Shown here piece after piece: positions 1 through 63,952 of a DNA stretch of 64,000 nucleotides (its first letter is position 1; each line of letters opens with the position of its first letter). The stretch spans positions 88,148-152,147 of IMG/VR virus record IMGVR_UViG_3300045771_000049, one strand, 5' to 3'. Source of the DNA: a virus. Lineage: Duplodnaviria; Caudoviricetes. Both the position numbers and the translations under genes were made by a program. The notes below the pieces were generated by a model that saw only the letters and a list, made by a program, of their open reading frames with translations, was not told the DNA's origin and made no database searches.

Positions 1-19
1 CAAGCAAGGTTAGTCGTCC

Positions 20-319
20 ATGAGTGATGTTCCCAACTATACCCATTATCTTCGTCTTGCCTTCACCGGATACTGGACCGACAGTTGTCCCTCGGCCGAG
101 AAGTTCTACGTTTTGGGCAAAGCCCTCAACGTTACTCTGACCGATGTCTACGAACTAGAGTCTGAAGTGCTTGGCATGATGACAGAATGGTACGGCGACC
201 GCATCACCGAGGTCACCTATATCGGCCATATCAATGTCAGGTTGTCCGACACTGATGTGATCGACGAGGGTTGGTATGTGTTTGACCCAGAATCCATCCA
301 GCCGCTGCCGGTGGGCTGA
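20..319 (+). CDS. hypothetical protein
   Basis: 99-aa ORF with ATG and an AAGG upstream; no recognised motif. Confidence 0.6.
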   Translation: MSDVPNYTHYLRLAFTGYWTDSCPSAEKFYVLGKALNVTLTDVYELESEVLGMMTEWYGDRITEVTYIGHINVRLSDTDVIDEGWYVFDPESIQPLPVG

Positions 320-321
320 GC

Positions 322-490
322 GTGGCGAAGAAAAACCACAGTTCAGATTAAGCTGATCTCGACCGCTGATACCGGATACTTCTACGTCACTACCAAGAAC
401 TCTCGCAGCAAAGCGAACAAATTGGTGCTGCGCAAGTATGACCCGGTGGTCCGTAGACATGTCGATTTCAAGGAAACCAAAATCAAATGA
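322..490 (+). CDS. rpmG: 50S ribosomal protein L33 (zinc-free type), with one extra A after codon 3 (frameshift, pseudogene or sequencing error)
   Basis: Frame 335-490 reads [51 protein letters not shown], the alphaproteobacterial L33 signature. GTG GCG AAG at 322 is one base out of frame across the A5 run at 331-335; removing one A gives a 55-aa MAKKTTVQIK... protein. Confidence 0.88.
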
Positions 491-507
491 TGAACGTGAA
501 CTAAAGC

Positions 508-593
508 TGGTGGGGGCTGAGGGGGTCGAACCCTCACTTCCTAACGGAAACCTGATCTTAAATCAAGCGCGTATGCCTTTTCGCCAAACCCCC
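508..593 (-). tRNA. tRNA-Leu(TAA)
   Basis: Acceptor GGGGGTT/AGCCCCC-A-CCA, anticodon arm CTTGA-TT-TAA-GA-TCAGG, long variable arm, GGTTCGA T-loop. Confidence 0.95.
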
Positions 594-613
594 TTTGAGG
601 CTTCCAGATTGGA

Positions 614-701
614 TGGTGTGGGCGAGAGGAATTGAACCTCCACGATCCTCTCGGACCAACAGGGTTTGAGCCTGTCGCGGCTGCCGTTACGCCACGCCCA
701 C
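614..701 (-). tRNA. tRNA-Leu(CAA)
   Basis: Acceptor GTGGGCG/CGCCCAC-A-CCA, anticodon arm ACAGG-CT-CAA-AC-CCTGT, long variable arm, GGTTCAA T-loop. Confidence 0.95.
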
Positions 702-703
702 AC

Positions 704-739
704 AAAGAAAAACCCCCTTACCGATCTGGCAAGGGGGTT
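704..739 (-). terminator. intrinsic terminator/attenuator directly upstream of the tRNA-Leu pair
   Basis: Minus strand AACCCCCTTGCC-AGATC-GGTAAGGGGGTT followed by TTTCTTT. Confidence 0.8.
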
Positions 740-768
740 CGCCCGTCGCGTGGGATCGGTGATGGGGG

Positions 769-801
769 TCAGGTTAAGCGTAAGGTGCGATGCGGGTGCA
801 T
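769..801 (-). CDS. putative attenuation leader peptide MHPHRTLRLT (two TTA codons)
   Basis: ATG CAC CCG CAT CGC ACC TTA CGC TTA ACC TGA, between a CATAAT -10-like box (816-811) and the terminator. Confidence 0.65.
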   Translation of the reverse strand: MHPHRTLRLT

Positions 802-809
802 AATTCCGC

Positions 810-833
810 TATTATGTAGCAAACGCCACCAAA
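810..833. repeat. left copy of 24-bp perfect inverted repeat flanking the MTase gene
   Basis: TATTATGTAGCAAACGCCACCAAA is the exact reverse complement of 1993-2016. Confidence 0.9.
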
Positions 834-1933
834 TCATCCGCTGGAGTAGCCAGATGCCCAAGTCGCTCGCGAGCAATATTAGCATAAACAGGGTTCAATT
901 CGATCAGCGTCGCTCGTCTGTTCAATTCACCAGCAACCAAGCCGGTCGTTCCGGCGCCCCCAAACGGATCAAGCACCAACTCTCCTTCGGGACATCCAGC
1001 AAGAATGCAGCGCCGGGCTAATTCTGGTGGCATCGTGGCAAAATGTGCGCCGTGAAATGGCTTTGGGGCAATAGTCCAGACATTCCGACCGTTGCGTGTT
1101 ACGTTGTTCAGAAATTCTCGGGTATATCCACCTAAAACCTGCTTTGCCTCGGCAGCAAGCTTCATCACTTCGGACGTGTTGTGCCCAAATCCGTCTTGCG
1201 TGATTTGAGACTTACCCACATCGGTAATCCCGCAGGCGCGTAGTGCAGCAAGATGGGCTGATGTTAAACCGCCGCGCTCAGCCAATTCCAACGCCCGTCG
1301 CATTTGCGGCCGATCAATCACGGCAGATGGTTCAGCCAACGAATCGGCATCGTAATAATAGTGCGGACGTTTGGATAATAAATAGACCTTTTCGTGGGCA
1401 CTGGTAGGCCGATCACGTACGGCTTCCGGCATTTGGCTGGTTTTATGCCATATGATTTCGCTTCGTAAAAACCAGCCATCGGATTGAAGCCCAATCGCTA
1501 CACGTGACGGAATCATCATCAGGTCTTTAGGCTTATAGCCGCTCGGTACGGTTTTTTCGCGTCGCTTACCTGTGACGTTGTCGATATACGCCTGTCCAGT
1601 CGAGTGAAATGCATCACTATGCGATGTGCCCTGCTTGCCGTGATGGGTCGCCGCATAACTGTCGCCCAGATTGAGCCAGACCGTGCCATCGTCACGCAAC
1701 ACGCGCCGCACCTCGCGAAACACGTCCACCAGTCTTGCCACGTAGGCGTCAGGTGTCTGTTCCATGCCGATCTGACCGTCAACTTGGTAGTCGCGCAGGC
1801 CAAAATACGGCGGCGAGGTCACACAGGTCTGAAAATGGAACTTAGGTAGTGTTTGCAATATTCCCATGCAGTCTCCGATATGGAGATGGATACTTTGAGA
1901 GTTCTGAAATTGTATAAGGTCATCTAATGGCAT
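812..1933 (-). CDS. DNA N4-cytosine/N6-adenine methyltransferase (beta class)
   Basis: TSPPY catalytic motif near the N-terminus, HFATMP and LDPFGGAGTT SAM-binding motif near the C-terminus. Confidence 0.93.
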   Translation of the reverse strand: MPLDDLIQFQNSQSIHLHIGDCMGILQTLPKFHFQTCVTSPPYFGLRDYQVDGQIGMEQTPDAYVARLVDVFREVRRVLRDDGTVWLNLGDSYAATHHGKQGTSHSDAFHSTGQAYIDNVTGKRREKTVPSGYKPKDLMMIPSRVAIGLQSDGWFLRSEIIWHKTSQMPEAVRDRPTSAHEKVYLLSKRPHYYYDADSLAEPSAVIDRPQMRRALELAERGGLTSAHLAALRACGITDVGKSQITQDGFGHNTSEVMKLAAEAKQVLGGYTREFLNNVTRNGRNVWTIAPKPFHGAHFATMPPELARRCILAGCPEGELVLDPFGGAGTTGLVAGELNRRATLIELNPVYANIARERLGHLATPADDLVAFAT

Positions 1934-1992
1934 TCAACTACTATAAAGGCTCTCTATTCTGTAAGACTATTTATTAATGACTGAATGGGCGG

Positions 1993-2016
1993 TTTGGTGG
2001 CGTTTGCTACATAATA
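1993..2016. repeat. right copy of 24-bp perfect inverted repeat
   Basis: TTTGGTGGCGTTTGCTACATAATA. Confidence 0.9.
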
Positions 2017-2068
2017 CCGCATAATTCTATATATCATCCTCAATCAGGTCTTGGAAGCCGCGACCTCT

Positions 2069-2464
2069 TCACGGTGTGAGAATTGCGGTGCTTCGCGCCG
2101 AGGTGATCACCCCGGCTGTGACCAAGGCGGCCATCCAGGTCGTTACGATCGGACCGCTAATCAAATTGACCATGCCGACCACCGCGCCAAAGGTCATCGC
2201 CTGGGCGATGCTGGCGTTGGTAGTGGCGTAAGTTTCGATGGCGGATTGTTCAGCCGGTGTGAAGCGTGCCCAAAAATTAGCGATGGGAATGACCGTGGGC
2301 GGCGGAGGTGTCGGCATCGGATCAGGCGTATTCGGCACTGCCAGCCATGTTTGATAATCCAGCCAATCCTGCGACGTGATCGGGGCCGGATTGTCGTAGA
2401 TGTAAACATTGTCCGACGTGCGCAGCACGACAATCGAGATAGCCGTTAATTGATAGAGCGCCAT
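2069..2464 (-). CDS. tail fibre assembly/accessory protein
   Basis: Directly downstream of a fibre gene; DWLDYQTWLAxxNTP and RFTPAE motifs typical of fibre-associated small proteins. Confidence 0.65.
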   Translation of the reverse strand: MALYQLTAISIVVLRTSDNVYIYDNPAPITSQDWLDYQTWLAVPNTPDPMPTPPPPTVIPIANFWARFTPAEQSAIETYATTNASIAQAMTFGAVVGMVNLISGPIVTTWMAALVTAGVITSARSTAILTP

Positions 2465-2467
2465 GTG

Positions 2468-4969
2468 CTAGATTCCCAATGTCTGTTCGATCGACCGCAA
2501 CCGCGCATCGATTTCTTTGAAAGCGTTCAGTGCAGCGAAGATCAGCGGTTTTTCATCAAAGCTAAGCTGTCCCGGCAACCGTGTCCGTTTGATATCTTCC
2601 GGCTTGTGCCCGTGGGAGATAGGATCGTCCGTGAAACGAACACATTCCGGCACGAACGGTTGGGCCTGTTGTGCGGTGACACCGTGCCAAACCTTGTCAT
2701 CCTTGGTGGTGCCACCCAGGCCGTTATATTCAAAGCTGACTGGCTCTAATTGAATGATGTCGGCCAAGCCGCGTGTGTAAGGGCGCACGTTGCGTTTGGT
2801 TCGCTCATCCGAAATATTTGACGCAGACATCGTGCCGTAGACGACGAAATGCCCGCCAATGGCCTCGGAGAAATACAACGCCTGAACGGCCGGACTGGTA
2901 ACAAAAAAGGCATAATTGCCGTTGCCCGCAACCCATTGATGCAACCAGTAAGTCTCATAGTTCATACTGCGATTGCCGTAACTATCAATGCCGAGAAAGA
3001 AATTGTTGGCTGCGGCATTGGAATAGAGTATCCCGTTCGCATATAGCTGGGTGCCAATAGTTGCAGTGGTGCCGACGTTGACGCTCTCGCCGACGGACAT
3101 CTGGAGCGGAGTGCTCCATCCGGTCGTAGTACTCTCGGCTTGCAAGGTCAGATTGGTTGCACCATAGCCCATGTAGCCCATACGGGTTCCGCCCGCATTG
3201 AAGAACCCGAAGTACCCCGTATCGACAGTGTTACCGGGGGTAGCCTGGAGGCTTCCCACGCTCGCTGCGGTGACGTTCACATTGGCGAATGTATAGGCTC
3301 CGCCCGTTTGGACAAAACTCTGCGGGTAAATCGTCGAAGCGATAAAGCCAACATCGGTGGCATCAACGGTTACTTTGGCGCCAGTACCAGCCGTTGACCA
3401 TCCGAGATACACCTTATCGGTGGTCTGTCCCGTGCCACCCCCTTGCTGGACCGGCGTGAAGCCCAAGGACGCCTGACGCGAGGTATCCACCGGATGCACA
3501 TGATCGGCGGCGGCAAACGTGGTGCCCGAACCCACGGCAGCGGTGCTGTTGATCAAGGGCAGGGCGGGGCTGATCTGGCCGAGAACAAAAGCTGTGGTGG
3601 CGATCTGCGAACTGGAATTGTTGATGGCGGGAGTGGGCGCAATGGCGGTGCCGGACAGTGCAATACCGTTATTTGCGGTAATCAAGCCAGTTGCCCGGTT
3701 GATCAAAAGAACTGGTGTGTAGAGAAACGTCCCAGCGTCATTGAAGGCATATAATTCTAAGTTTGATCCGGCATTACTACCAGTTTCTGCTGTTGCATCC
3801 GCGAACAGACACCAGCGATTGAGACCGGCTGATTGCCACCAGACTTGGCGATTGTTACCAGTCGCCGCATCGAGAACCAGACTCACCGAGGCGGCAGTAC
3901 TGCTGCCAATCGTGATGGTTCCAGCGGCCAGTAATGCGGCGATTTGGGTTGTGGTCAGGGCCGTGAAAGACAGTGCCGTGATGGTGAGATAGACCAGTGC
4001 TGTCCCGCTCAGGCTCAGCGCTGTTCCGCCGAGCGAGGAGGATGACACAGTGCGGCTCAGCGTTTCGGCGCCAGACGTATAGACACCTGTCCCGACCTCC
4101 CAAGCATTGGCGGTGTCTTGGATGGCATAATACACCGTGGCGCCCGAGGTCAAAGCCCCAGCCGTGACCGCTGCGGCAAAGCTCCGAAAACCCGCGCTTG
4201 CCGCACCAAGCGCAATCGTTCCGGTGCCGGTTGTTGCTGTTGCGACTGATACTCTATCTGCGAACTGAATTACAGGGGTCGGCAACGAATTCGAAAATGG
4301 TGCGGTTGGCGGTGTGAATGCGCCTGCATAACGGGCCACGCCGACCGTAATACGCACTTCATCGATATAGCCGGGGAATGTGCCGTTGTTTGGATGGGTA
4401 ATGCCATAGGTAGTATTGCCGATTACACCGCCTTGATTACTTGAATAAAATGCGCCGACGATAACTTGCGAGCAGAGGACTGCACCATTGACATAGACCC
4501 GAAGGGTGTTGGTTGCGTCGCGATCCGTCGCCACATGATACCAAGCGTTCAACGATGGCGTATAGGCGCCGCTTGGTCCGGCGCCGTCATAACCACCCGT
4601 TGAATATGAGAAACCTATCGACCCGGCGAACCAGCCGAATAGCCAGCCATACTGACCGCCAACATCCCATTGGCTGATAATGGTATCAACACCGGAACCA
4701 GTGAATGAGGTGAAGTTGACCCACGCTTCAACAGTAAACTGACCAGCACCAAGATAAGCATTTGATGCTAGTGATCCAAACTGAACACCCGTGCTGACAG
4801 CTAAACATCCTGTACCAAACTTAGGACTTGCGGTACTGATCGAATCCGTCCCGCTGTCTGGGGCGAACATCACCAAATTATTTGGAGAACTGTCGATAAA
4901 GGTCGTTGATCCGTTTGTGCCATCAAAATGGGCAAGCAGACTCACATTTGAAAAATAGGGATCACCCAT
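2468..4969 (-). CDS. tail fibre with N-terminal LamG/ConA-like domain and C-terminal S74 intramolecular chaperone
   Basis: SLLAHFDG..FTVEAWV..WYHVA..GYIDEVRITVGVARY (LamG-like); Gly/Thr/Ala-rich shaft; SDERTKRNV...IIQLEPVSFEY...GVTAQQ plus terminal coiled coil. Confidence 0.85.
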   Translation of the reverse strand: MGDPYFSNVSLLAHFDGTNGSTTFIDSSPNNLVMFAPDSGTDSISTASPKFGTGCLAVSTGVQFGSLASNAYLGAGQFTVEAWVNFTSFTGSGVDTIISQWDVGGQYGWLFGWFAGSIGFSYSTGGYDGAGPSGAYTPSLNAWYHVATDRDATNTLRVYVNGAVLCSQVIVGAFYSSNQGGVIGNTTYGITHPNNGTFPGYIDEVRITVGVARYAGAFTPPTAPFSNSLPTPVIQFADRVSVATATTGTGTIALGAASAGFRSFAAAVTAGALTSGATVYYAIQDTANAWEVGTGVYTSGAETLSRTVSSSSLGGTALSLSGTALVYLTITALSFTALTTTQIAALLAAGTITIGSSTAASVSLVLDAATGNNRQVWWQSAGLNRWCLFADATAETGSNAGSNLELYAFNDAGTFLYTPVLLINRATGLITANNGIALSGTAIAPTPAINNSSSQIATTAFVLGQISPALPLINSTAAVGSGTTFAAADHVHPVDTSRQASLGFTPVQQGGGTGQTTDKVYLGWSTAGTGAKVTVDATDVGFIASTIYPQSFVQTGGAYTFANVNVTAASVGSLQATPGNTVDTGYFGFFNAGGTRMGYMGYGATNLTLQAESTTTGWSTPLQMSVGESVNVGTTATIGTQLYANGILYSNAAANNFFLGIDSYGNRSMNYETYWLHQWVAGNGNYAFFVTSPAVQALYFSEAIGGHFVVYGTMSASNISDERTKRNVRPYTRGLADIIQLEPVSFEYNGLGGTTKDDKVWHGVTAQQAQPFVPECVRFTDDPISHGHKPEDIKRTRLPGQLSFDEKPLIFAALNAFKEIDARLRSIEQTLGI

Positions 4970-17756: not shown

Positions 17757-19118
17757 TCACTGCCGTGGCAGTCCCGGCGGGATTTGCACGGATGGAGCGT
17801 AGAAATTGCGGGTTGCATCAAACGGCGTCGAAGCGGTACGGTTGGAATTCACGAAGGCGATGATGCCGACGGTCGCGGCAACGACCACAGCGGCGATTGA
17901 GAGCAGCGTGGTGGTAGACGCTTGGCTATGACGATCCGCCCCTTGCATGCGGTCCATGCGCGAGGCGAGGTCGCTGATTTTATCAGTCGTGCTGTTGATC
18001 ATCGTCACAACCTCGGTGCGCTGGATCATATTACTGGACAGATCGTTTAGCGATTGGCGGAACTCGTTGACCGTATTATGCATGGCGAAGCCACCGGCAA
18101 TGTAGGTTTTGGTGGAGGTGGATAGCTGGGCGATAACTCCGTTGCCGACCAGATCAACAGATTTAACAAAGGTCTCGCGATGATTACCGTTGATCGGGCG
18201 ACCGTCCCAAACGCCATCAGATTTAACCAACAATCTCGGTGGCCGAATTGAACCTGATTCCCAGGATGTATCGATTGTCCATAGCTCAGCAGGCCGCATC
18301 ACCTGATCGTCGATCTGTAAATCACTGGTTTGAACCCAGCGCCACTCGGCTCTTGATGTGGAAAGTTTAGGCAACACCAACCAAGGATGATGCCCATTGC
18401 AACGCACGGAGCCATGGCAGGTAGCAACCTCGAACAGCTTATCTTCCGCTAAGCTGTTTGCGGTCACAAAGGATTTTCGCAACCGACGACCACGACGCGT
18501 CACACTTTCTTCATCGAAACCGATCAGAACGTCGCCAACAACAAGTTCACCGGCGGGTCGCCACACCAGATCGGCGCATAAAACAGGGGTGCTGGCTTCC
18601 ACACAATCGAAGCGTTTTTCGACGGCTTGTTCGGCTTTCCGCACCGCTTCGTTCGAAGCGGTCAGGGCGATGCTTAGTGAATCGGTGGCCGCCTTGGAAA
18701 TCTGCTCGTTGAATTCCTTGGCCAGTCTGAACCGATCATCCACCGACCGAAAGCCATTCGTCATCACCTCTCGAAGGACTTGATTGGCCAGCAGCGAAGA
18801 TTCATTTCCAGCCTTCGCCATTGTCTCGGTCGCGATTTTATTGTAATCAAAGCGCTCTCTGATAAACGCTGTGGTGAGGTCTTGACGTTCCTGGAGCCGC
18901 CGATCGATCTCATCGATGATGGCCCGTCTCGCCTCGTCGATTTGGCCCATCCGTCGTTCCAGCGTATCAACACGCTCATGGAACGAATGCAGATCATGCG
19001 CTTTTAATTCCTTGAGGGCTTCCAAACGTGTGTCGAGATAGACTCGCAAGGAATTCACCGTCCAGGTTGCGTCGATTGTAGCACTGGTATCGTTCAGCGC
19101 CGGATTGGGCTCGATCAT
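17757..19118 (-). CDS. coiled-coil protein with C-terminal transmembrane helix, interrupted by a mini-intein
   Basis: Heptad-rich exteins (AVEKRFD|TVNEFR), TM segment LLSIAAVVVAATVGIIAFV. Confidence 0.8.
   Translation of the reverse strand: MIEPNPALNDTSATIDATWTVNSLRVYLDTRLEALKELKAHDLHSFHERVDTLERRMGQIDEARRAIIDEIDRRLQERQDLTTAFIRERFDYNKIATETMAKAGNESSLLANQVLREVMTNGFRSVDDRFRLAKEFNEQISKAATDSLSIALTASNEAVRKAEQAVEKRFDCVEASTPVLCADLVWRPAGELVVGDVLIGFDEESVTRRGRRLRKSFVTANSLAEDKLFEVATCHGSVRCNGHHPWLVLPKLSTSRAEWRWVQTSDLQIDDQVMRPAELWTIDTSWESGSIRPPRLLVKSDGVWDGRPINGNHRETFVKSVDLVGNGVIAQLSTSTKTYIAGGFAMHNTVNEFRQSLNDLSSNMIQRTEVVTMINSTTDKISDLASRMDRMQGADRHSQASTTTLLSIAAVVVAATVGIIAFVNSNRTASTPFDATRNFYAPSVQIPPGLPRQ
18075..18605 (-). 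mobile_element. mini-intein (177 aa)
   Basis: Block A CVEASTPVL, block B CNGHHPW, C-terminus TYIAGGFAMHN followed by +1 Thr; no LAGLIDADG motifs. Confidence 0.88.
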
Positions 19119-39370: not shown

Positions 39371-39725
39371 TGCAAGGTGTGCTTTTCGGCCAAAGTCTCT
39401 AAGGGCTGTAATGGTCGTCTCAGGATAACTGCCACTGTTCACAATGTCTCCCAATCAAACCCCCCATTCCTCCTGGTTGTGGGGGCAAAACCATTACTTA
39501 CTACTCACCCGGTTCGAACGTCACAGTCTGTGCTGGAGGAACGTCCTCGGTCACCCGATTCAGAAGGCCAGCTTACCGTTCCACGCCGCCGTAGCTTCCA
39601 TATCCCTGCGGCTCTACGCCCGTTTCAACAGCAGCATCCACGGGACCACTTGATTCGGCTCGCGACACCGTTTCCGCCGCTCGACACTCTTTAAAGGATG
39701 AGATTCTACCCCCACCTTCCTTGCA
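39371..39725 (-). ncRNA. putative large structured ncRNA (GOLLD/ROOL-like context)
   Basis: No credible ORF; closing helix TGCAAGG/CCTTGCA, long-range GTAATGGT/ACCATTAC, GNRA-capped hairpins (GTGA, GAAA, GGAA) on the minus strand; adjacent to a tRNA cluster. Confidence 0.55.
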
Positions 39726-39774
39726 GGCCGCTGTATGACCGATCAGCGCGCCGCGAGTCAACGATAATTTCCTA

Positions 39775-39804
39775 TTGACGTTGTTTGAGTGCATGTCTTA
39801 TACA
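39775..39804 (+). promoter_or_regulatory. sigma70-like promoter for the leader/tRNA operon
   Basis: TTGACG-18 nt-TATACA; predicted start falls at about the leader ATG (leaderless). Confidence 0.6.
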
Positions 39805-39811
39805 TATCGCT

Positions 39812-39868
39812 ATGAGCAACACACCCACCACGACCCGGCGCGACGAACGCGATACAACCACGCGGTGA
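39812..39868 (+). CDS. putative attenuation leader peptide MSNTPTTTRRDERDTTTR
   Basis: 14 of 18 codons are Thr/Arg/Asp/Glu, matching the downstream tRNAs. Confidence 0.7.
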   Translation: MSNTPTTTRRDERDTTTR

Positions 39869-39929
39869 CCGCTCATGCGCGGTCGCCAGACAGGGCGGCT
39901 GCGGTGTTAATCTCCTTTCGGAACACCCA

Positions 39930-39954
39930 GGTCGCCAATTTGGCGGCCTTTTTT
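39930..39954 (+). terminator. attenuator terminator upstream of the tRNA cluster
   Basis: GGTCGCCA-ATT-TGGCGGCC followed by TTTTTT. Confidence 0.8.
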
Positions 39955-39993
39955 GTGTTTTGGAGACCAGCCTATGCATTGATCCCTTCGTCT

Positions 39994-40067
39994 GCTCGCA
40001 TCTTCCAATGGTAGGAAACCAGATTGTCGATCTGTGAACGCGGGTTCGATTCCCGCTGTGAGCGCCA
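39994..40067 (+). tRNA. tRNA-Asp(GTC)
   Basis: GCTCGCA/TGTGAGC-G-CCA; CAGA-TT-GTC-GA-TCTG; GGTTCGATT. Confidence 0.93.
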
Positions 40068-40069
40068 AC

Positions 40070-40146
40070 GGCGCATTCGTCTAGTGGTCCAGGATTTCCG
40101 GACTTTCAATCCGGAGACGACAGTTCAAATCTGTCATGCGCCGCCA
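40070..40146 (+). tRNA. tRNA-Glu(TTC)
   Basis: GGCGCAT/ATGCGCC-G-CCA; CCGGA-CT-TTC-AA-TCCGG. Confidence 0.93.
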
Positions 40147-40166
40147 CATGTCTATCGCTCTACTAC

Positions 40167-40240
40167 GACGCTGTCGTCTAACGGTAGGATTTTTGATTCT
40201 CAGTCAACCGATCGGGGTTCGATTCCCCGCAGCGTCACCA
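40167..40240 (+). tRNA. tRNA-Glu(CTC)
   Basis: GACGCTG/CAGCGTC-A-CCA; TTGA-TT-CTC-AG-TCAA. Confidence 0.88.
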
Positions 40241-40241
40241 C

Positions 40242-40321
40242 GGACCCGTATGCCCTCGCGCTTCGAACGCGTTGAAAGGCTAACTGGATACATGCAGGTT
40301 CGATCCCTGTCGGGTCCGCCA
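40242..40321 (+). ncRNA. atypical tRNA-like RNA (TCG/Arg-like anticodon, no canonical D-arm)
   Basis: GGACCCG/CGGGTCC-G-CCA acceptor and GCAGG-TTCGATC-CCTGT T-arm; CGCG-CTTCGAA-CGCG arm only 8 nt after the acceptor; D-loop-like TAACTGGATA placed 3' of it. Confidence 0.7.
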
Positions 40322-40337
40322 AAATCAATTAAACCCT

Positions 40338-40419
40338 GCCGGGTTGGCCCAGAGGCGACGGCAGCAGATTTGTAATCTGCGATACAACATCGGGGGTTCG
40401 AGTCCCTCACCCGGCACCA
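40338..40419 (+). tRNA. tRNA-Thr(TGT) with enlarged variable region
   Basis: GCCGGGT/ACCCGGC-A-CCA; GCAGA-TT-TGT-AA-TCTGC; variable region GATACAACATC. Confidence 0.88.
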
Positions 40420-40548
40420 CTGACCCATTATTCGCCCATTGCAGGCGATAATGGTCAATAAATGGGTCATCCCTAAGCCAAACCGGATACGCGTAAATAC
40501 CTCGGCGGCGGCAACGAATGAGCGTTTCGCCCGGATGGCGAAGCGCGC

Positions 40549-51254: not shown

Positions 51255-53072
51255 TTAAACGCCGCGAGGAGCTTTCCTGCCTCGCGGCTTCTTTTTGTCC
51301 GGTGGCATGTCCTGGAAAGCGGGATTGCACTTTACGACACGCCATTTCCCAGCGTCATACACGCGCGGTATCTGTTCGGCAATGGCCATTTGTCGCTCTG
51401 TCATACCGGTGCCAACATATTTGGCGAATCGCTTGCTTGATTTACGAAGATTAAACTTGTGAATGCGCCGATTAGCGATTACGTACATGTAATCCGGGGC
51501 GATTTCTTTCTCGACCGTAAAGCCAAGGATCGTGTATAGCGCGCCCATGCTCCATCGCAGATCAACAAATGACTTGATGGTCTGCCAATTATACATGCGC
51601 TCAAACGCACACAATAACCGACTCGCACCACCCACGACCGAATTTTTGCTGGCATAACGAACCAATTCCCACCCTGCGGATGTTCGTTCTGTAAACGACA
51701 TACAAGCCACCAAATCGTGCTGGCTCCGCAGCCCGAGATGCACGGTGGCAGAGGCGCGACCGAAAACATGGTGAATGTCGTAAAATCCGGCCGCCTCGTG
51801 ATGGCTGATCGGTCCGAGAACGCACGATCGCGCATAGGTCTTGTGAGTGGTCAGACCAAGCCGGTGTCTGATGGTGGCGATCACTGCCTCAGGGTGGTCG
51901 ATCCATTCATCTTCGAAAACTTGAAGCAAGGTGATATTTTGGCGCAACGCCATCAATCGTTTTTTAGCATGATAGGCGCGATCCCGGCCGAATGCTTCGC
52001 TATGCCAGATCGCCCCACCGAATTCGACTCCAAGTCGATGTGTCGGAAAGTAATTATCAATCTGCTGCCAACAACGGCGATCGTTGTCTTTACCTTCTGG
52101 AATCAGAATGTCAACATTCCGCTCTGGTGGCATTATTTCACGTGCTAGACAGTCGGCAAAAGCGTTTTCGGCTGCACGATGATCACCGCCCGTATAATCT
52201 AGTTCGATGTTCCATCGATAGGCATACCGATGAATCAGAGACGGATCATATCCGGTTTCTGCGGCAATATCACCAGCGCGTCTGCCGGTGAAACGCCGGG
52301 CGAAATCGGTCTGGTCGATGATGCGATGTTGCGGCAGGATATGAAGCTGGGCGATATGCCCGCCGAACCGCTGTTCCATAGTCTGCTTCATTTTGTGCCG
52401 CACTACAGGTGAACAGGCGGGTGCGACACCGCCATAGCGAAGCAAGTTCGTCGCTTGGATTTTGGCTTGCACGACCGGATGCCGCGCCACATTGGATACC
52501 CCCCACGTGGCCCTTACCCCCGCTCGCATACGGACCTGATGTTCCGGTGAATGACTGATGTGGTCCACACCGTGGTTCAGTTGCGTCTTGTCGCGGATAA
52601 CCGCTTTGATCTCGTCAGACGCAAACACGTTTTTGGCGCCATATCTGACGAGATTGGTGGCCTCGGCCGTCTCGCGACGACTGACCAGTGATCCGGTGTT
52701 AGGCACCCCGTAGCGGTCCAGGCAGGTATCACGGATTTTTTCTTTTACATCCGCTGCCTGTGCGGCATTGGCGACGCCTCGTTTGGCAAAGTTGGTCGCC
52801 TCCGAAGTGGCTAGGAAATGCTCCATAAAACACGGGCAGACACGGCCGTTGCCGCAAAACTTCCATCCATCCGCAATCCGCACGATCGACCGATCGCGAC
52901 CGGCTGCACAGATGGCCGGACCATGCAACAACGTTGCAGCGGCACGACGAATATCGGTTTCTTCGATCTGACCCAACGCCAATTGCAATTCGGGGGTCAG
53001 CTTTGTAACCCACCCACCGCGCCACCGCAACAAATGTTGTCGCAGCACTTCCGCCAAAGGGTGGGTCATCAT
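51255..53072 (-). CDS. homing-endonuclease-like protein (repeats + Vsr/EDxHD-type nuclease + GNAT-like C-terminus)
   Basis: TxxxRYG repeats, VEFGGAIWHSE, VFEDEW, ELVRYAS..VVGGASRL, DLRWS.G.LY. Confidence 0.75.
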   Translation of the reverse strand: MMTHPLAEVLRQHLLRWRGGWVTKLTPELQLALGQIEETDIRRAAATLLHGPAICAAGRDRSIVRIADGWKFCGNGRVCPCFMEHFLATSEATNFAKRGVANAAQAADVKEKIRDTCLDRYGVPNTGSLVSRRETAEATNLVRYGAKNVFASDEIKAVIRDKTQLNHGVDHISHSPEHQVRMRAGVRATWGVSNVARHPVVQAKIQATNLLRYGGVAPACSPVVRHKMKQTMEQRFGGHIAQLHILPQHRIIDQTDFARRFTGRRAGDIAAETGYDPSLIHRYAYRWNIELDYTGGDHRAAENAFADCLAREIMPPERNVDILIPEGKDNDRRCWQQIDNYFPTHRLGVEFGGAIWHSEAFGRDRAYHAKKRLMALRQNITLLQVFEDEWIDHPEAVIATIRHRLGLTTHKTYARSCVLGPISHHEAAGFYDIHHVFGRASATVHLGLRSQHDLVACMSFTERTSAGWELVRYASKNSVVGGASRLLCAFERMYNWQTIKSFVDLRWSMGALYTILGFTVEKEIAPDYMYVIANRRIHKFNLRKSSKRFAKYVGTGMTERQMAIAEQIPRVYDAGKWRVVKCNPAFQDMPPDKKKPRGRKAPRGV

Positions 53073-56714: not shown

Positions 56715-58418
56715 ATGCTCGAACGTTTAAATCAACTGATCGCAAAAGCGGGCCTTAAACAATGGTCATTCGCACTTCGCAGAGACCATGAGTTCCTCGA
56801 CTGGATCGATGCTCAAACTACGGATATGCCCTCTGACACGTCATTCCCGATCCGCGTGTTTTCGGCCGTGCACAATGAACGTCCCCTGTGTCCGCAAGGT
56901 CGGCAACGGACCTTGAAATCGATTGTTGATGGCTGGAGATTCTGTGGGAAGACCGGCCAGTGCGCTTGCGCCAGGGAATCGGTATCAGCCAATGTCAGTA
57001 AAACCAAATCGCTGGACACCGAAGAAGAAAGATTAGCCACTCAGCAAAAACGCGAACAAACGAATTTAGGGCGCTATGGTCACGTCAATACTGGTCAGAC
57101 CGAGACGGCCAAAACTGCCCATGCCGCGTTCTACTCGAACCAAGACAACATCAAGGCCCAGCTTCGGAAGCAGGTCGCCACCATGCAACAGAGATACGGC
57201 GTTACCAACCCCGCCCATCTGCGTGCGGTCGGCGAGCAGAAACAGATGACCATGCGAGTTCGCCATGGCGTCAGCAATCCGATGCAAAGTAAATCAATCG
57301 CCGTCCGATCGATTGCGACCCGCTTGGCAAACGGCTACGCCGAGTCCTATTATCGGAGAAACTACGATCGGATGAAGACGCGACTGATGGAGGATTGTAA
57401 GCTAATCCTGCTCACATCATTCGAAAATTATACCGGAGTGGCCGGAGCGCCGCTGGTGTCATTAAGTTGCCCGACCTGCGCACGAAACATCGAATGGCGA
57501 ATCGATTATGGTCATCAGCCGCGCTGCGCGGCATGCAATCCTCGTCCAATCAACTACAAATCCAAAGAGGAAATCGAAGTTTATAATTACATCTGTTCCG
57601 ATTTAGGGATCGCCAGAGTCATCTCCGGCGATCGCAGACTCATCGGCCCCTACGAGATCGATATTCTCAGCGAGGAACACAAATTAGCCATTGAATATTG
57701 CGGTCTCTACTGGCACAGCGAGAGTCAACGAATCAATCGGAACTATCATCTCAAAAAACACAATGCGGTGGAAAAACAGGGCTATCGTCTTCTTACGTTG
57801 TTCAGTGACGAATGGTTAGATCACTCTGAAATCGTCAAGAGCAAAATCGGCCATCTGTTTGGCTGTACTCCGGACCGTCGCTTTGCCCGCAGCCTTCAGG
57901 TTGCCGAAATCAACAATAAGGAAGCTGCGTGTTTCTACACAATCGCCCACATTCAAGGGCCGGTTGACGCCACCAAGCACCTCGCACTTACTGACCGTGG
58001 CAAGATTGTTTGCGCAATGTCATTCATCAATGCCAGAGAAAGTCGCGGTCTGATGTCTGGGGCATCTGAATTGGTTCGCTATGCTTCCCTGCCTTTTATC
58101 ACCGTGGTTGGCGGCGCCTCACGGTTATTCGCCCATTTCATCAAAGATCACTCGCCGATCGCGGTTATCAGCTATGCAGATCGACGATGGAGCGACGGCG
58201 GCCTGTATCGAAAACTGGGATTTACGTTGGAGCACACCACAGCGCCAGATTATAGCTATGTCGAGAATCATCGATATCGCCATTTCCGTTTCGGCTTCCG
58301 CAAGGATGTCTTGAAAAGTGTTCTGGGCGACTTTGACGATACCGAATGGGAGGTGATGCGCGCTCTTGATTACGATCGCATCTGGGACTGCGGCAAATAC
58401 CGCTTTGTCTGGTCATAG
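56715..58418 (+). CDS. homing-endonuclease-like protein (paralog of 51255-53072)
   Basis: GWRFCG, RYG repeats, CxxC pairs, AIEYCGLYWHSE, LFSDEW, VVGGASRL, RIWDCGK. Confidence 0.78.
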   Translation: MLERLNQLIAKAGLKQWSFALRRDHEFLDWIDAQTTDMPSDTSFPIRVFSAVHNERPLCPQGRQRTLKSIVDGWRFCGKTGQCACARESVSANVSKTKSLDTEEERLATQQKREQTNLGRYGHVNTGQTETAKTAHAAFYSNQDNIKAQLRKQVATMQQRYGVTNPAHLRAVGEQKQMTMRVRHGVSNPMQSKSIAVRSIATRLANGYAESYYRRNYDRMKTRLMEDCKLILLTSFENYTGVAGAPLVSLSCPTCARNIEWRIDYGHQPRCAACNPRPINYKSKEEIEVYNYICSDLGIARVISGDRRLIGPYEIDILSEEHKLAIEYCGLYWHSESQRINRNYHLKKHNAVEKQGYRLLTLFSDEWLDHSEIVKSKIGHLFGCTPDRRFARSLQVAEINNKEAACFYTIAHIQGPVDATKHLALTDRGKIVCAMSFINARESRGLMSGASELVRYASLPFITVVGGASRLFAHFIKDHSPIAVISYADRRWSDGGLYRKLGFTLEHTTAPDYSYVENHRYRHFRFGFRKDVLKSVLGDFDDTEWEVMRALDYDRIWDCGKYRFVWS

Positions 58419-63382: not shown

Positions 63383-63952
63383 ATGTTTTTACAAGTTGCC
63401 GAGTTTCATGCCGCCTTCGGATTGCCGCATGCGGACCATCCGCTGTTACCTGACCGTAAACAACGCGAACTGCGCAAGCGTCTCCTGATCGAGGAGGTGC
63501 AAGAGTTGATCATGGGGTTGCGCGCAGACGATCGCCTGAACATCGCCAAAGAACTGGCCGATGTATGCTACATTCTGGCCGGGACCGGCGTGGTCTATGG
63601 GATTGCACCAACCACCCCCTTCGCCTCACCGTTCGATAATTGCTCGCAAATGGCGGTGTTTATTCACACGCCGCTCGACGATATCATCATGGCCTATCTG
63701 GAGGATTACTTGCGCGCCGAGGCGCGGGACAATCTGGATGAGATTTGGACCAGCATCAATTTCATGCTGTGGGCGATGTTCGGCCTCGCCTTGCATCTGG
63801 CGATCCCGCTGAATGCCGTCTTTGCCGAAGTGCATCGCAGCAATATGACCAAGCTGATCGATGCGGACCAGCAGCTTATGCGGACCGACGGCAAGATTCT
63901 CAAGGGTCCGAACTACCAACCGCCCAGCCTGAGCGAGATCATGCATGGGTGA
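63383..63952 (+). CDS. MazG-like/PRA-PH nucleotide pyrophosphohydrolase
   Basis: VAEFH, LLIEEVQEL, KELADVCY, EVHRSNMTK, DGKILKG; AAGGA upstream of ATG 63383. Confidence 0.88.
   Translation: MFLQVAEFHAAFGLPHADHPLLPDRKQRELRKRLLIEEVQELIMGLRADDRLNIAKELADVCYILAGTGVVYGIAPTTPFASPFDNCSQMAVFIHTPLDDIIMAYLEDYLRAEARDNLDEIWTSINFMLWAMFGLALHLAIPLNAVFAEVHRSNMTKLIDADQQLMRTDGKILKGPNYQPPSLSEIMHG

Follow-up and report, generated by a model that had tools for sequence, protein, structure and literature searches.

Codon-matched leader ORFs before the tRNA clusters of a jumbo phage and a putative UUA-sensing attenuator upstream of two tRNA-Leu genes

The manner and timing of tRNA gene expression in phages with many such genes is the question raised by a locus at the beginning of a 64,000-nucleotide stretch of phage DNA (hereafter, the window). 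The window corresponds to bases 88148–152147 of the 152-kb IMG/VR virus record IMGVR_UViG_3300045771_000049 (CheckV completeness 36%), which belongs to a jumbo phage with a G+C content of ~54%. Two tRNA-Leu genes are located here on the minus strand, namely, tRNA-Leu(CAA), which reads UUG (614–701; ARAGORN; Rfam tRNA match of 49.7 bits), followed by tRNA-Leu(UAA), which reads UUA/UUG (508–593; ARAGORN; Rfam tRNA match of 50.3 bits). They are preceded by a short open reading frame (ORF) and a terminator, which together are called the Leu unit below. On balance, we consider it probable that the Leu unit is one of four ribosome-mediated (leader-peptide) transcription attenuators placed before the tRNA clusters of this phage, either working or recently perturbed. 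In this case, the phage probably makes the tRNAs only when the leader codons are read slowly.

Leader ORFs and terminators before four tRNA clusters

All parts of the Leu unit lie on the minus strand. The leader ORF (769–801, ATG at 801–799) consists of 10 sense codons and the stop codon TGA (771–769), and its sole Leu codons are the TTA triplets at 783–781 and 777–775. TTA accounts for 6.5% of the Leu codons in the long ORFs of the phage, yet it represents both Leu codons of the leader; two TTA codons within seven codons of a short ATG-initiated ORF occur in 0.5% of random 220-nt windows (chance 0.005). The leader stop codon is overlapped by a C-rich segment (753–771, segment A), which is a direct repeat of the terminator 5′ arm and loop (12/17 identical). 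The terminator hairpin (711–739; 5′ arm 739–728, loop 727–723, 3′ arm 722–711; ~ −21.4 kcal/mol) is followed by a U-run, seen as a T-run in the sequence (704–710). The same hairpin was called by the terminator scan, with 13 pairs and an extent of 740–704 including the T-run; its calculated energies are −21.4 to −22.7 kcal/mol. These are the features of a Rho-independent terminator on the minus strand; read on the plus strand, the hairpin lacks a following T-run.

The 5′ end of tRNA-Leu(CAA) (701) is located 3 nt past the T-run. Since the U-run abuts the tRNA, the tRNA-Leu genes would be made only by read-through of the terminator. A promoter downstream of the hairpin, which according to a previous sequence-only reading of this locus would reduce the hairpin to a terminator of the adjacent methyltransferase gene, does not fit into this gap. 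The same reading described the locus as a TTA-sensing attenuator and listed a CATAAT box, the 10-codon ORF with its two TTA codons, the segment overlapping the stop codon, the terminator, and two tRNA-Leu genes; all of these are present on the minus strand where it placed them. As in leader-peptide attenuators, an ORF with cognate codons and an intrinsic terminator between this ORF and the regulated genes were found; the regulated genes are two tRNA genes and not genes of biosynthesis, transport, or aminoacyl-tRNA synthetases.

According to the ARAGORN analysis of the whole 152-kb record, it contains four tRNA clusters, and four of four are preceded by a short ATG-initiated ORF rich in codons of their own tRNAs. 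Each leader was scored by its best 7-codon window for cognate codons, and the chance of such a score was determined per random 220-nt window. The best windows contained 6/7 cognate codons before the Trp-Phe-Tyr-Cys cluster (chance 5e-4), 5/7 before Val-Met (1e-3), 6/7 before Asp-Glu-Thr (1e-3), and two TTA codons before Leu (5e-3). For each leader, the top score was obtained with its own tRNA set. Among 1892 small ORFs of the genome, leaders included, the respective score was reached by one ORF for Trp-Phe-Tyr-Cys, by 10 for Leu, and by 3 and 2 for the other two sets.

The leaders of the three sister units start 6–7 nt after a TTGACR-N18-(−10) sequence. A search of both strands of the 152 kb for TTGACR-N17-19-(−10)-N5-8-ATG gave three sites only, and these are the three sister leaders. 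Judging by their sequences, these should be host-type promoters, and, since the ATG codons are located 6–7 nt after the −10 box, leaderless mRNAs are implied. A clear hairpin with a U-run was found before the first tRNA in three of the four units, including the Leu unit; the Val unit contains only a weak one.

The strongest sister is the Trp unit, located outside the window (genome positions 18090–18316) and followed by tRNA-Trp, Phe, Tyr, and Cys. Its promoter, TTGACA-N18-TTTAAT, lies 6 nt before the ATG, and its leader of 30 codons contains the run Phe-Phe-Cys-Cys-Trp-Arg-Tyr. Nucleotides 51–59 or 74–88 of this leader are a candidate anti-terminator ahead of a terminator that is related to that of the Leu unit. 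The sequence CTTGnCAGATCG within AACCCnC...GnGGGTTTTT is present in exactly two copies in the genome, each directly before a tRNA cluster, and the Leu and Trp terminator hairpins differ by two compensatory pair changes. The two units can be aligned at 74% identity over the stretch that starts with the last sense codon and ends with the U-run, the stop codon being TGA in the Leu unit and TAG in the Trp unit; the Leu terminator is, on this sequence evidence, a paralogue of the terminator of the Trp-Phe-Tyr-Cys cluster. Since the alignment starts at the last sense codon, the end of the ORF lies at a homologous place in both units.

The Asp unit (39775–39961, plus strand) lies in the window. Its promoter includes TTGACG (39775–39780), N18, and TATACA (39799–39804), with the ATG 7 nt later. 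The leader (39812–39868 including the stop codon) has 18 codons, of which 7 are Thr, 2 Asp, and 1 Glu. It is followed by a chain of alternatively pairing segments (39864–39872, 39879–39887, and 39893–39902), a terminator (39929–39949, then a T-run), and the genes of tRNA-Asp, tRNA-Glu(UUC), tRNA-Glu(CUC), and tRNA-Thr(UGU) (39994–40419, plus strand). Since the equilibrium probabilities of the terminator were inconsistent for the Asp unit and flat for the Trp unit, co-transcriptional snapshots were relied on instead. In the snapshots with the ribosome stalled at codons 6–14, the first hairpin is present, and the 5′ arm of the terminator is held by the third segment; when the ribosome occupies the stop codon, the third segment pairs with the second, which leaves the terminator free. 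In these modelled snapshots, the Asp unit behaves as a textbook attenuator. A separate observation in the Asp cluster is a match to the Rfam tRNA-Sec model (26.9 bits, below the threshold) at 40241–40318 of the plus strand, between tRNA-Glu(CUC) and tRNA-Thr, where ARAGORN made no call; it may be a degenerate or unusual tRNA.

The Val-Met unit (genome positions 87690–88102) is located 45–460 nt before the window start. Its ATG lies 7 nt past the promoter TTGACG-N18-TACATA, and its leader of 32 codons contains 6 Val codons among the last 13 and an internal Met codon. The Val codons are mostly GTC; the anticodon of the tRNA-Val is UAC. A strong U-run terminator was not found before tRNA-Val.

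Alternative pairing in the Leu unit and the proposed switch

The Leu region folds better than 200 of 200 shuffled sequences (z = −3.65). The complementarity of the post-stop segment to the terminator 3′ arm, noticed in the sequence-only reading, was borne out by the calculations. Segment A pairs with the terminator loop and 3′ arm in two 7-bp helices around a 3 × 2 internal loop, with an energy of −23.8 kcal/mol compared to −21.4 kcal/mol for the terminator hairpin. The partner of the 3′ half of segment A (760–754) is 726–720, which takes in the terminator loop and three adjoining nucleotides of the 3′ arm; the 5′ half of segment A (770–764) pairs with the G-run of the 3′ arm. A pairing as strong as this was found in 4 of 5000 random genomic 62-mers and in 11 of 5000 shuffles (p about 0.001–0.002).

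At equilibrium, the probability of the terminator was 0.00–0.05 when segment A was free, that is, in the absence of a ribosome or with one of codons 2–7 in its A site, and 0.57–0.69 with the A site from codon 8 through the stop codon. In this calculation, the switch predicted in the sequence-only reading falls between A-site codons 7 and 8, where the probability rises from 0.01 to about 0.6.

According to the folding path, a small hairpin, Pi (729–749, minus strand; leader nt 53–73; −7.6 kcal/mol), in which the spacer is paired with the terminator 5′ arm, forms before the 3′ arm is transcribed; it is a candidate core of the anti-terminator. Once the loop and three bases of the 3′ arm emerge, 760–754 pairs with 726–720 and stacks on Pi. 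Direct refolding from the state with Pi and this clamp to the terminator meets a barrier of ~16 kcal/mol.

The paired features listed in the sequence-only reading fit a TTA-sensing attenuator, and this concept is supported by the sister units, in which the codon matching is much stronger and promoters and terminators are present, the paralogy of the terminators, and the distant phages described below. The logic of the switch needs revision, because the complete helix of segment A with the terminator 3′ arm abuts the U-run. To call this helix an anti-terminator is an assumption: in the models it looks like a long terminator and may itself terminate. Since the complete helix sits on the U-run, read-through should be likeliest with the ribosome on the second UUA codon, when the 5′ half of segment A (770–764) would be hidden and its 3′ half free.

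The mechanism proposed for the Leu unit is as follows; translation of the ORF, stalling, and the choice of the terminating fold are what we infer from the sequence features, their statistics, the paralogy, and the alternative pairings with their energies. The 10-codon ORF would be translated while the RNA polymerase transcribes the next 100 nt, and the two UUA codons would report the speed of UUA decoding and thereby the combined host and phage supply of charged tRNA-Leu(UAA). With fast decoding, the ribosome at UGA would cover segment A, so that only the weak Pi opposes the terminator; the compact hairpin and U-run would form, and transcription would end 3 nt short of tRNA-Leu(CAA). A ribosome stalled at UUA would leave the 3′ half of segment A free, and this half, with Pi holding the terminator 5′ arm, would clamp the loop and the top of the 3′ arm. 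Since the clamp would be in place while the remainder of the 3′ arm is still to be made, the terminator would come too late, and the polymerase would enter both tRNA-Leu genes, which would close a negative feedback loop. Leader RNA that is not translated would terminate, as at trp. The proposed control would extend leader-peptide attenuation to targets of a new class, phage tRNA genes, with a new geometry of the competitor in the Leu unit.

The methyltransferase cassette and other explanations of the Leu unit

On the minus strand, the order of genes is as follows: tail-fibre genes (Laminin_G_3 and Peptidase_S74 domains according to Pfam), an ORF of 131 codons (2464–2069), an N6/N4 DNA methyltransferase gene (1933–812; Pfam E = 1e-43), the Leu leader with its terminator, and the two tRNA-Leu genes. 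The methyltransferase gene is flanked by an exact repeat of 24–27 nt in inverted orientation. Together, they form a 1213-bp mobile cassette (807–2019) with inverted repeats at 807–833 and 1993–2019 (26/27 identical). The cassette is bordered by an 8-bp target-site duplication, whose first copy (CATAATTC on the plus strand, 799–806) holds the leader ATG and whose second copy (CATAATTC, 2020–2027) matches it exactly. Terminal inverted repeats together with a direct target-site duplication are the features of an inverted-repeat transposable cassette of the insertion sequence (IS)/MITE-like type, and as sequence features they are the signature of a transposed cassette. The methyltransferase is its only gene; the only Pfam match is N6_N4_Mtase, and no transposase is present inside. 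In addition, a third, solo copy of the cassette repeat with 3 mismatches and without a partner repeat was observed at genome positions 63751–63774.

The CATAAT box (816–811), taken for a promoter in the sequence-only reading, is located inside the left cassette repeat and contains the methyltransferase stop codon TAA (814–812). No −35 box was found 16–19 nt from it, it was not called by the promoter scan, and it is unlike the TTGACR-N18 promoters of the sister units; as a sigma-70 promoter, it was rejected. As a side observation, the cassette repeat contains GCTACATA, which resembles an alphaproteobacterial −10 box. An extended −10-like sequence, TGnTATATA (2036–2028, minus strand), is present just upstream of the second copy of the target duplication. 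When the cassette is removed in silico, this sequence is placed 5 nt before the leader ATG, without the TTGACR −35 box of the sister units. This distance is near the 6–7 nt of the sisters, and TGnTATATA is the probable former promoter of the Leu unit. The promoter evidence for this unit consists only of the −10-like box in the cassette repeat and the displaced TGnTATATA.

In the present arrangement, judging by the sequence, any transcript of the Leu leader must either traverse the cassette or originate in its repeat. The methyltransferase stop codon is located 10 nt before the leader ATG, and the leader is perhaps translated by re-initiation after it. The Leu unit would be a case of natural rewiring by the insertion of a mobile methyltransferase cassette between a promoter and its leader.

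Several points weigh against attenuation in the Leu unit, which departs furthest of the four from the canonical layout. Its leader is an ORF of 10 codons with two regulatory codons only, and, when it is scored for TTR (TTA or TTG), the chance increases to 0.087. The leader ATG lacks a good Shine–Dalgarno sequence, and neither the TTGACR promoter nor the leaderless spacing of the three sister units is present. The cassette sits between the leader and its presumed former −10 box, and the unit may be impaired. The complete helix of segment A with the terminator 3′ arm also makes a hairpin, and it shares its U-run with the terminator. The competitor of the Leu unit targets the terminator 3′ arm and not the 5′ arm; to our knowledge, the competitor pairs with the terminator 5′ arm in all studied attenuators. 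Equilibrium folding of the Trp unit gave no clear switch, which shows that these calculations are of limited power. Finally, no orthologue of the Leu unit was found, and the covariation evidence is limited to one paralogue, the Trp unit.

Alternatively, the hairpin would be an ordinary intrinsic terminator of the tail-fibre/methyltransferase transcription unit, with the tRNAs cut by RNase P from leak-through transcripts and the ORF and its TTA codons present by chance. The hairpin and U-run are canonical, they follow the minus-strand genes with no other terminator between these genes and the tRNAs, and the unit has no dedicated promoter like those of its sisters. The shortness of the ORF, its lack of a clear ribosome-binding site, and the TTR chance given above also agree with this explanation. 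However, the hairpin lies outside the cassette and predates it, and therefore it is not the methyltransferase's own terminator. Its sole paralogue in the genome terminates the clearly codon-matched, promoter-driven Trp leader, and the three other clusters have attenuator-like units. Moreover, chance would have to account for the competitor pairing that overlaps the stop codon at the above p value and for the fact that both Leu codons are the rare one read by the downstream tRNA. We therefore regard a plain terminator as unlikely.

Somewhat less likely still, in our opinion, is that the Leu unit is a relic, which the cassette cut off from its promoter, so that the terminator is now constitutive and the leader poorly translated. 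The cassette, with its almost identical repeats and exact duplication, lies 0–8 nt upstream of the ATG; its in-silico removal restores a spacing of TGnTATATA similar to that in the sisters, and the present upstream context contains no −35 box. On the other side, the leader ORF, segment A, Pi, the terminator, and both tRNAs are intact, and the position of the methyltransferase stop codon would permit re-initiation. The near-perfect repeats suggest a recent insertion, with little time for decay either way.

It is very improbable that the pairing of segment A with the 3′ arm is an element of RNA processing or stability, for example, an RNase III stalk parting the tRNA precursor from the upstream mRNA. 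In favour of this reading, the pairing is significant but its geometry is not obviously anti-terminating, and the minimum-free-energy fold of 830–695 gives a stem of ~25 pairs that includes the tRNA 5′ end; in read-through RNA, 754–746 would lengthen the stalk by pairing with the last part of the U-run and with 5 nt at the start of the tRNA. However, such a stalk would leave unexplained the TTA codons, the stop codon in segment A, and the codon-matched leaders at three other clusters, and the Trp paralogue has no equivalent pairing with its terminator 3′ arm.

Distant phages, known systems, and neighbouring genes

A large kinase-like protein shows 50–60% identity with proteins of uncultured phages of 634–642 kb and of the Ralstonia phage RsoM2USA, which indicates a distant link. 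The tRNA loci of LR745206, LR756502, LR756504, and RsoM2USA were analyzed by grouping the tRNAs and reading the upstream ORFs. Many of these ORFs clearly match their tRNAs, for example, a Gln-rich one before tRNA-Gln, a Gln/Tyr-rich one before Tyr-Tyr-Gln, an Ile/Ala/Val/Glu-rich one before Glu-Ala-Ile-Val, and a Ser/Arg-rich one before Arg-Ser. Permutation of the tRNA sets among the units within each genome gave p < 5e-4, 0.003, and 0.012 for the three 640-kb phages; for RsoM2USA, the matching was not significant by this permutation (p = 0.13). Downstream of the matched leaders, strong terminators of the type AAACCC...GGGTTTTT are located 5–22 nt before the first tRNA, which is the layout of the Leu unit. 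The codon-matched units of the three 640-kb phages thus resemble the Leu unit in having a short ORF in the amino acids of the downstream tRNAs, a terminator, and a tRNA cluster; unlike them, the Leu unit is based on a single codon, is the shortest, has a competitor of the 3′ arm, and is split from its promoter by a cassette. In addition, many tRNA-cluster leaders of these three phages share a Met-Lys-Thr-Ile-Asn-x-Asn-Ile-like N-terminus before the codon-matched part; this similarity of sequence may point to shared ancestry or to a similar context of initiation.

Taken together with these phages, it appears rather probable that giant phages run a tRNA-homeostasis regulon, in which each cluster is gated by a codon-matched leader, often on a leaderless mRNA, and tRNAs in short supply are topped up; the Leu unit would be its UUA-only version.

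Searches for relatives of the Leu unit were mostly negative. Relatives of the methyltransferase have an identity of ≤51% and are found in unrelated contigs. The exact 43-mer of the tRNA and the degenerate hairpin pattern each gave 0 matches in viral contigs, and the hairpin pattern gave 0 matches in metagenome contigs. The neighbouring gene (2069–2464) has one relative with 57% identity, whose downstream DNA is different and contains no tRNA, and none in metagenomes; no relatives of the ORF at 20–319 were found. BLASTN comparison with isolate phages revealed generic tRNA or methyltransferase similarity only. An Rfam scan of positions 1–3000 and 39500–40500 and of the Trp and Val-Met loci (E up to 1) gave tRNA matches only, and neither the leader families (Leu_leader, Trp_leader, His_leader, Thr_leader, and Phe_leader) nor the T-box matched the Leu, Asp, Trp, or Val-Met loci. 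A full-text literature search found no published leader-peptide attenuation of tRNA genes. A Phe-rich leader of E. coli pheV, considered as a possible precedent, was rejected after the analysis of NC_000913, where the promoter is located directly before the tRNA.

For fifty years, textbooks have presented leader-peptide attenuation as a sensor of amino acid supply, known for the amino acid operons with trpL, hisL, leuL, thrL, pheL, and ilvL and also for pheM before pheST. The phage units share with these attenuators a short ORF containing codons of the controlled commodity, a terminator before the regulated genes, and mutually exclusive pairings selected by the ribosome; the multi-amino-acid sister units resemble the multivalent leaders thrL and ilvL. 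Unlike the operon attenuators, they are carried by a phage, and their targets are tRNA genes, so that the loop would sense and correct the decoding capacity directly. Three of the four phage leaders are apparently on leaderless mRNAs, and the Leu competitor has the loop and 3′ arm of the terminator as its partner in place of the 5′ arm.

T-box riboswitches are Gram-positive leaders (~200 nt) of aminoacyl-tRNA synthetase and amino acid genes, which bind uncharged tRNA without translation. As proposed for the Leu unit, they attenuate transcription according to the state of a particular tRNA; in contrast to the T-box, with its specifier codon and T-box sequence, the Leu leader has ~100 nt, bears an ORF, and has no Rfam T-box match. 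In Streptomyces, tRNA-Leu(UAA) encoded by bldA limits the translation of TTA-containing genes. There, as proposed here, the rare TTA codon is a sensor of tRNA-Leu(UAA) availability; whereas bldA acts on the translation of target mRNAs, TTA in the Leu unit would gate the transcription of the tRNA gene itself.

If the proposed attenuation is true, it would provide direct feedback on decoding capacity, would answer the question raised at the beginning, and would offer a testable reason for the sorting of huge-phage tRNA genes into blocks. The output of phage tRNAs would rise on depletion of specific host tRNAs, whether caused by a mismatch of codon usage, host shut-off, or anticodon nucleases. 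The phage would gauge the speed of decoding codon by codon, for example, after depletion of host tRNAs or their cleavage by defence nucleases. Leader ORFs of this kind could be used as a signal in genome annotation and, in synthetic biology, as compact sensors of specific codons; the Leu unit would be a single-codon sensor with an unusual geometry of the competitor.

Some other features of the record were observed. A gene of ribosomal protein L33 (320–490, plus strand; Pfam E = 7e-15) is convergent with the tRNA-Leu genes; an obvious in-frame start near the N-terminus of its open frame was not seen. Shine–Dalgarno use is low in this phage (28% of first-ATG starts versus 12% in the background, crude counts). 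A TAAATA-type motif is present 5–12 nt upstream of the putative starts of many long ORFs across the record, including the methyltransferase gene. This motif is similar to late promoters of the T4 type and suggests that late mRNAs have a short 5′ leader or none. Two large paralogous ORFs (51255–53072, minus strand, and 56715–58418, plus strand) match homing/HNH endonucleases of the PHROG database with E = 1e-84 and 7e-95, respectively.

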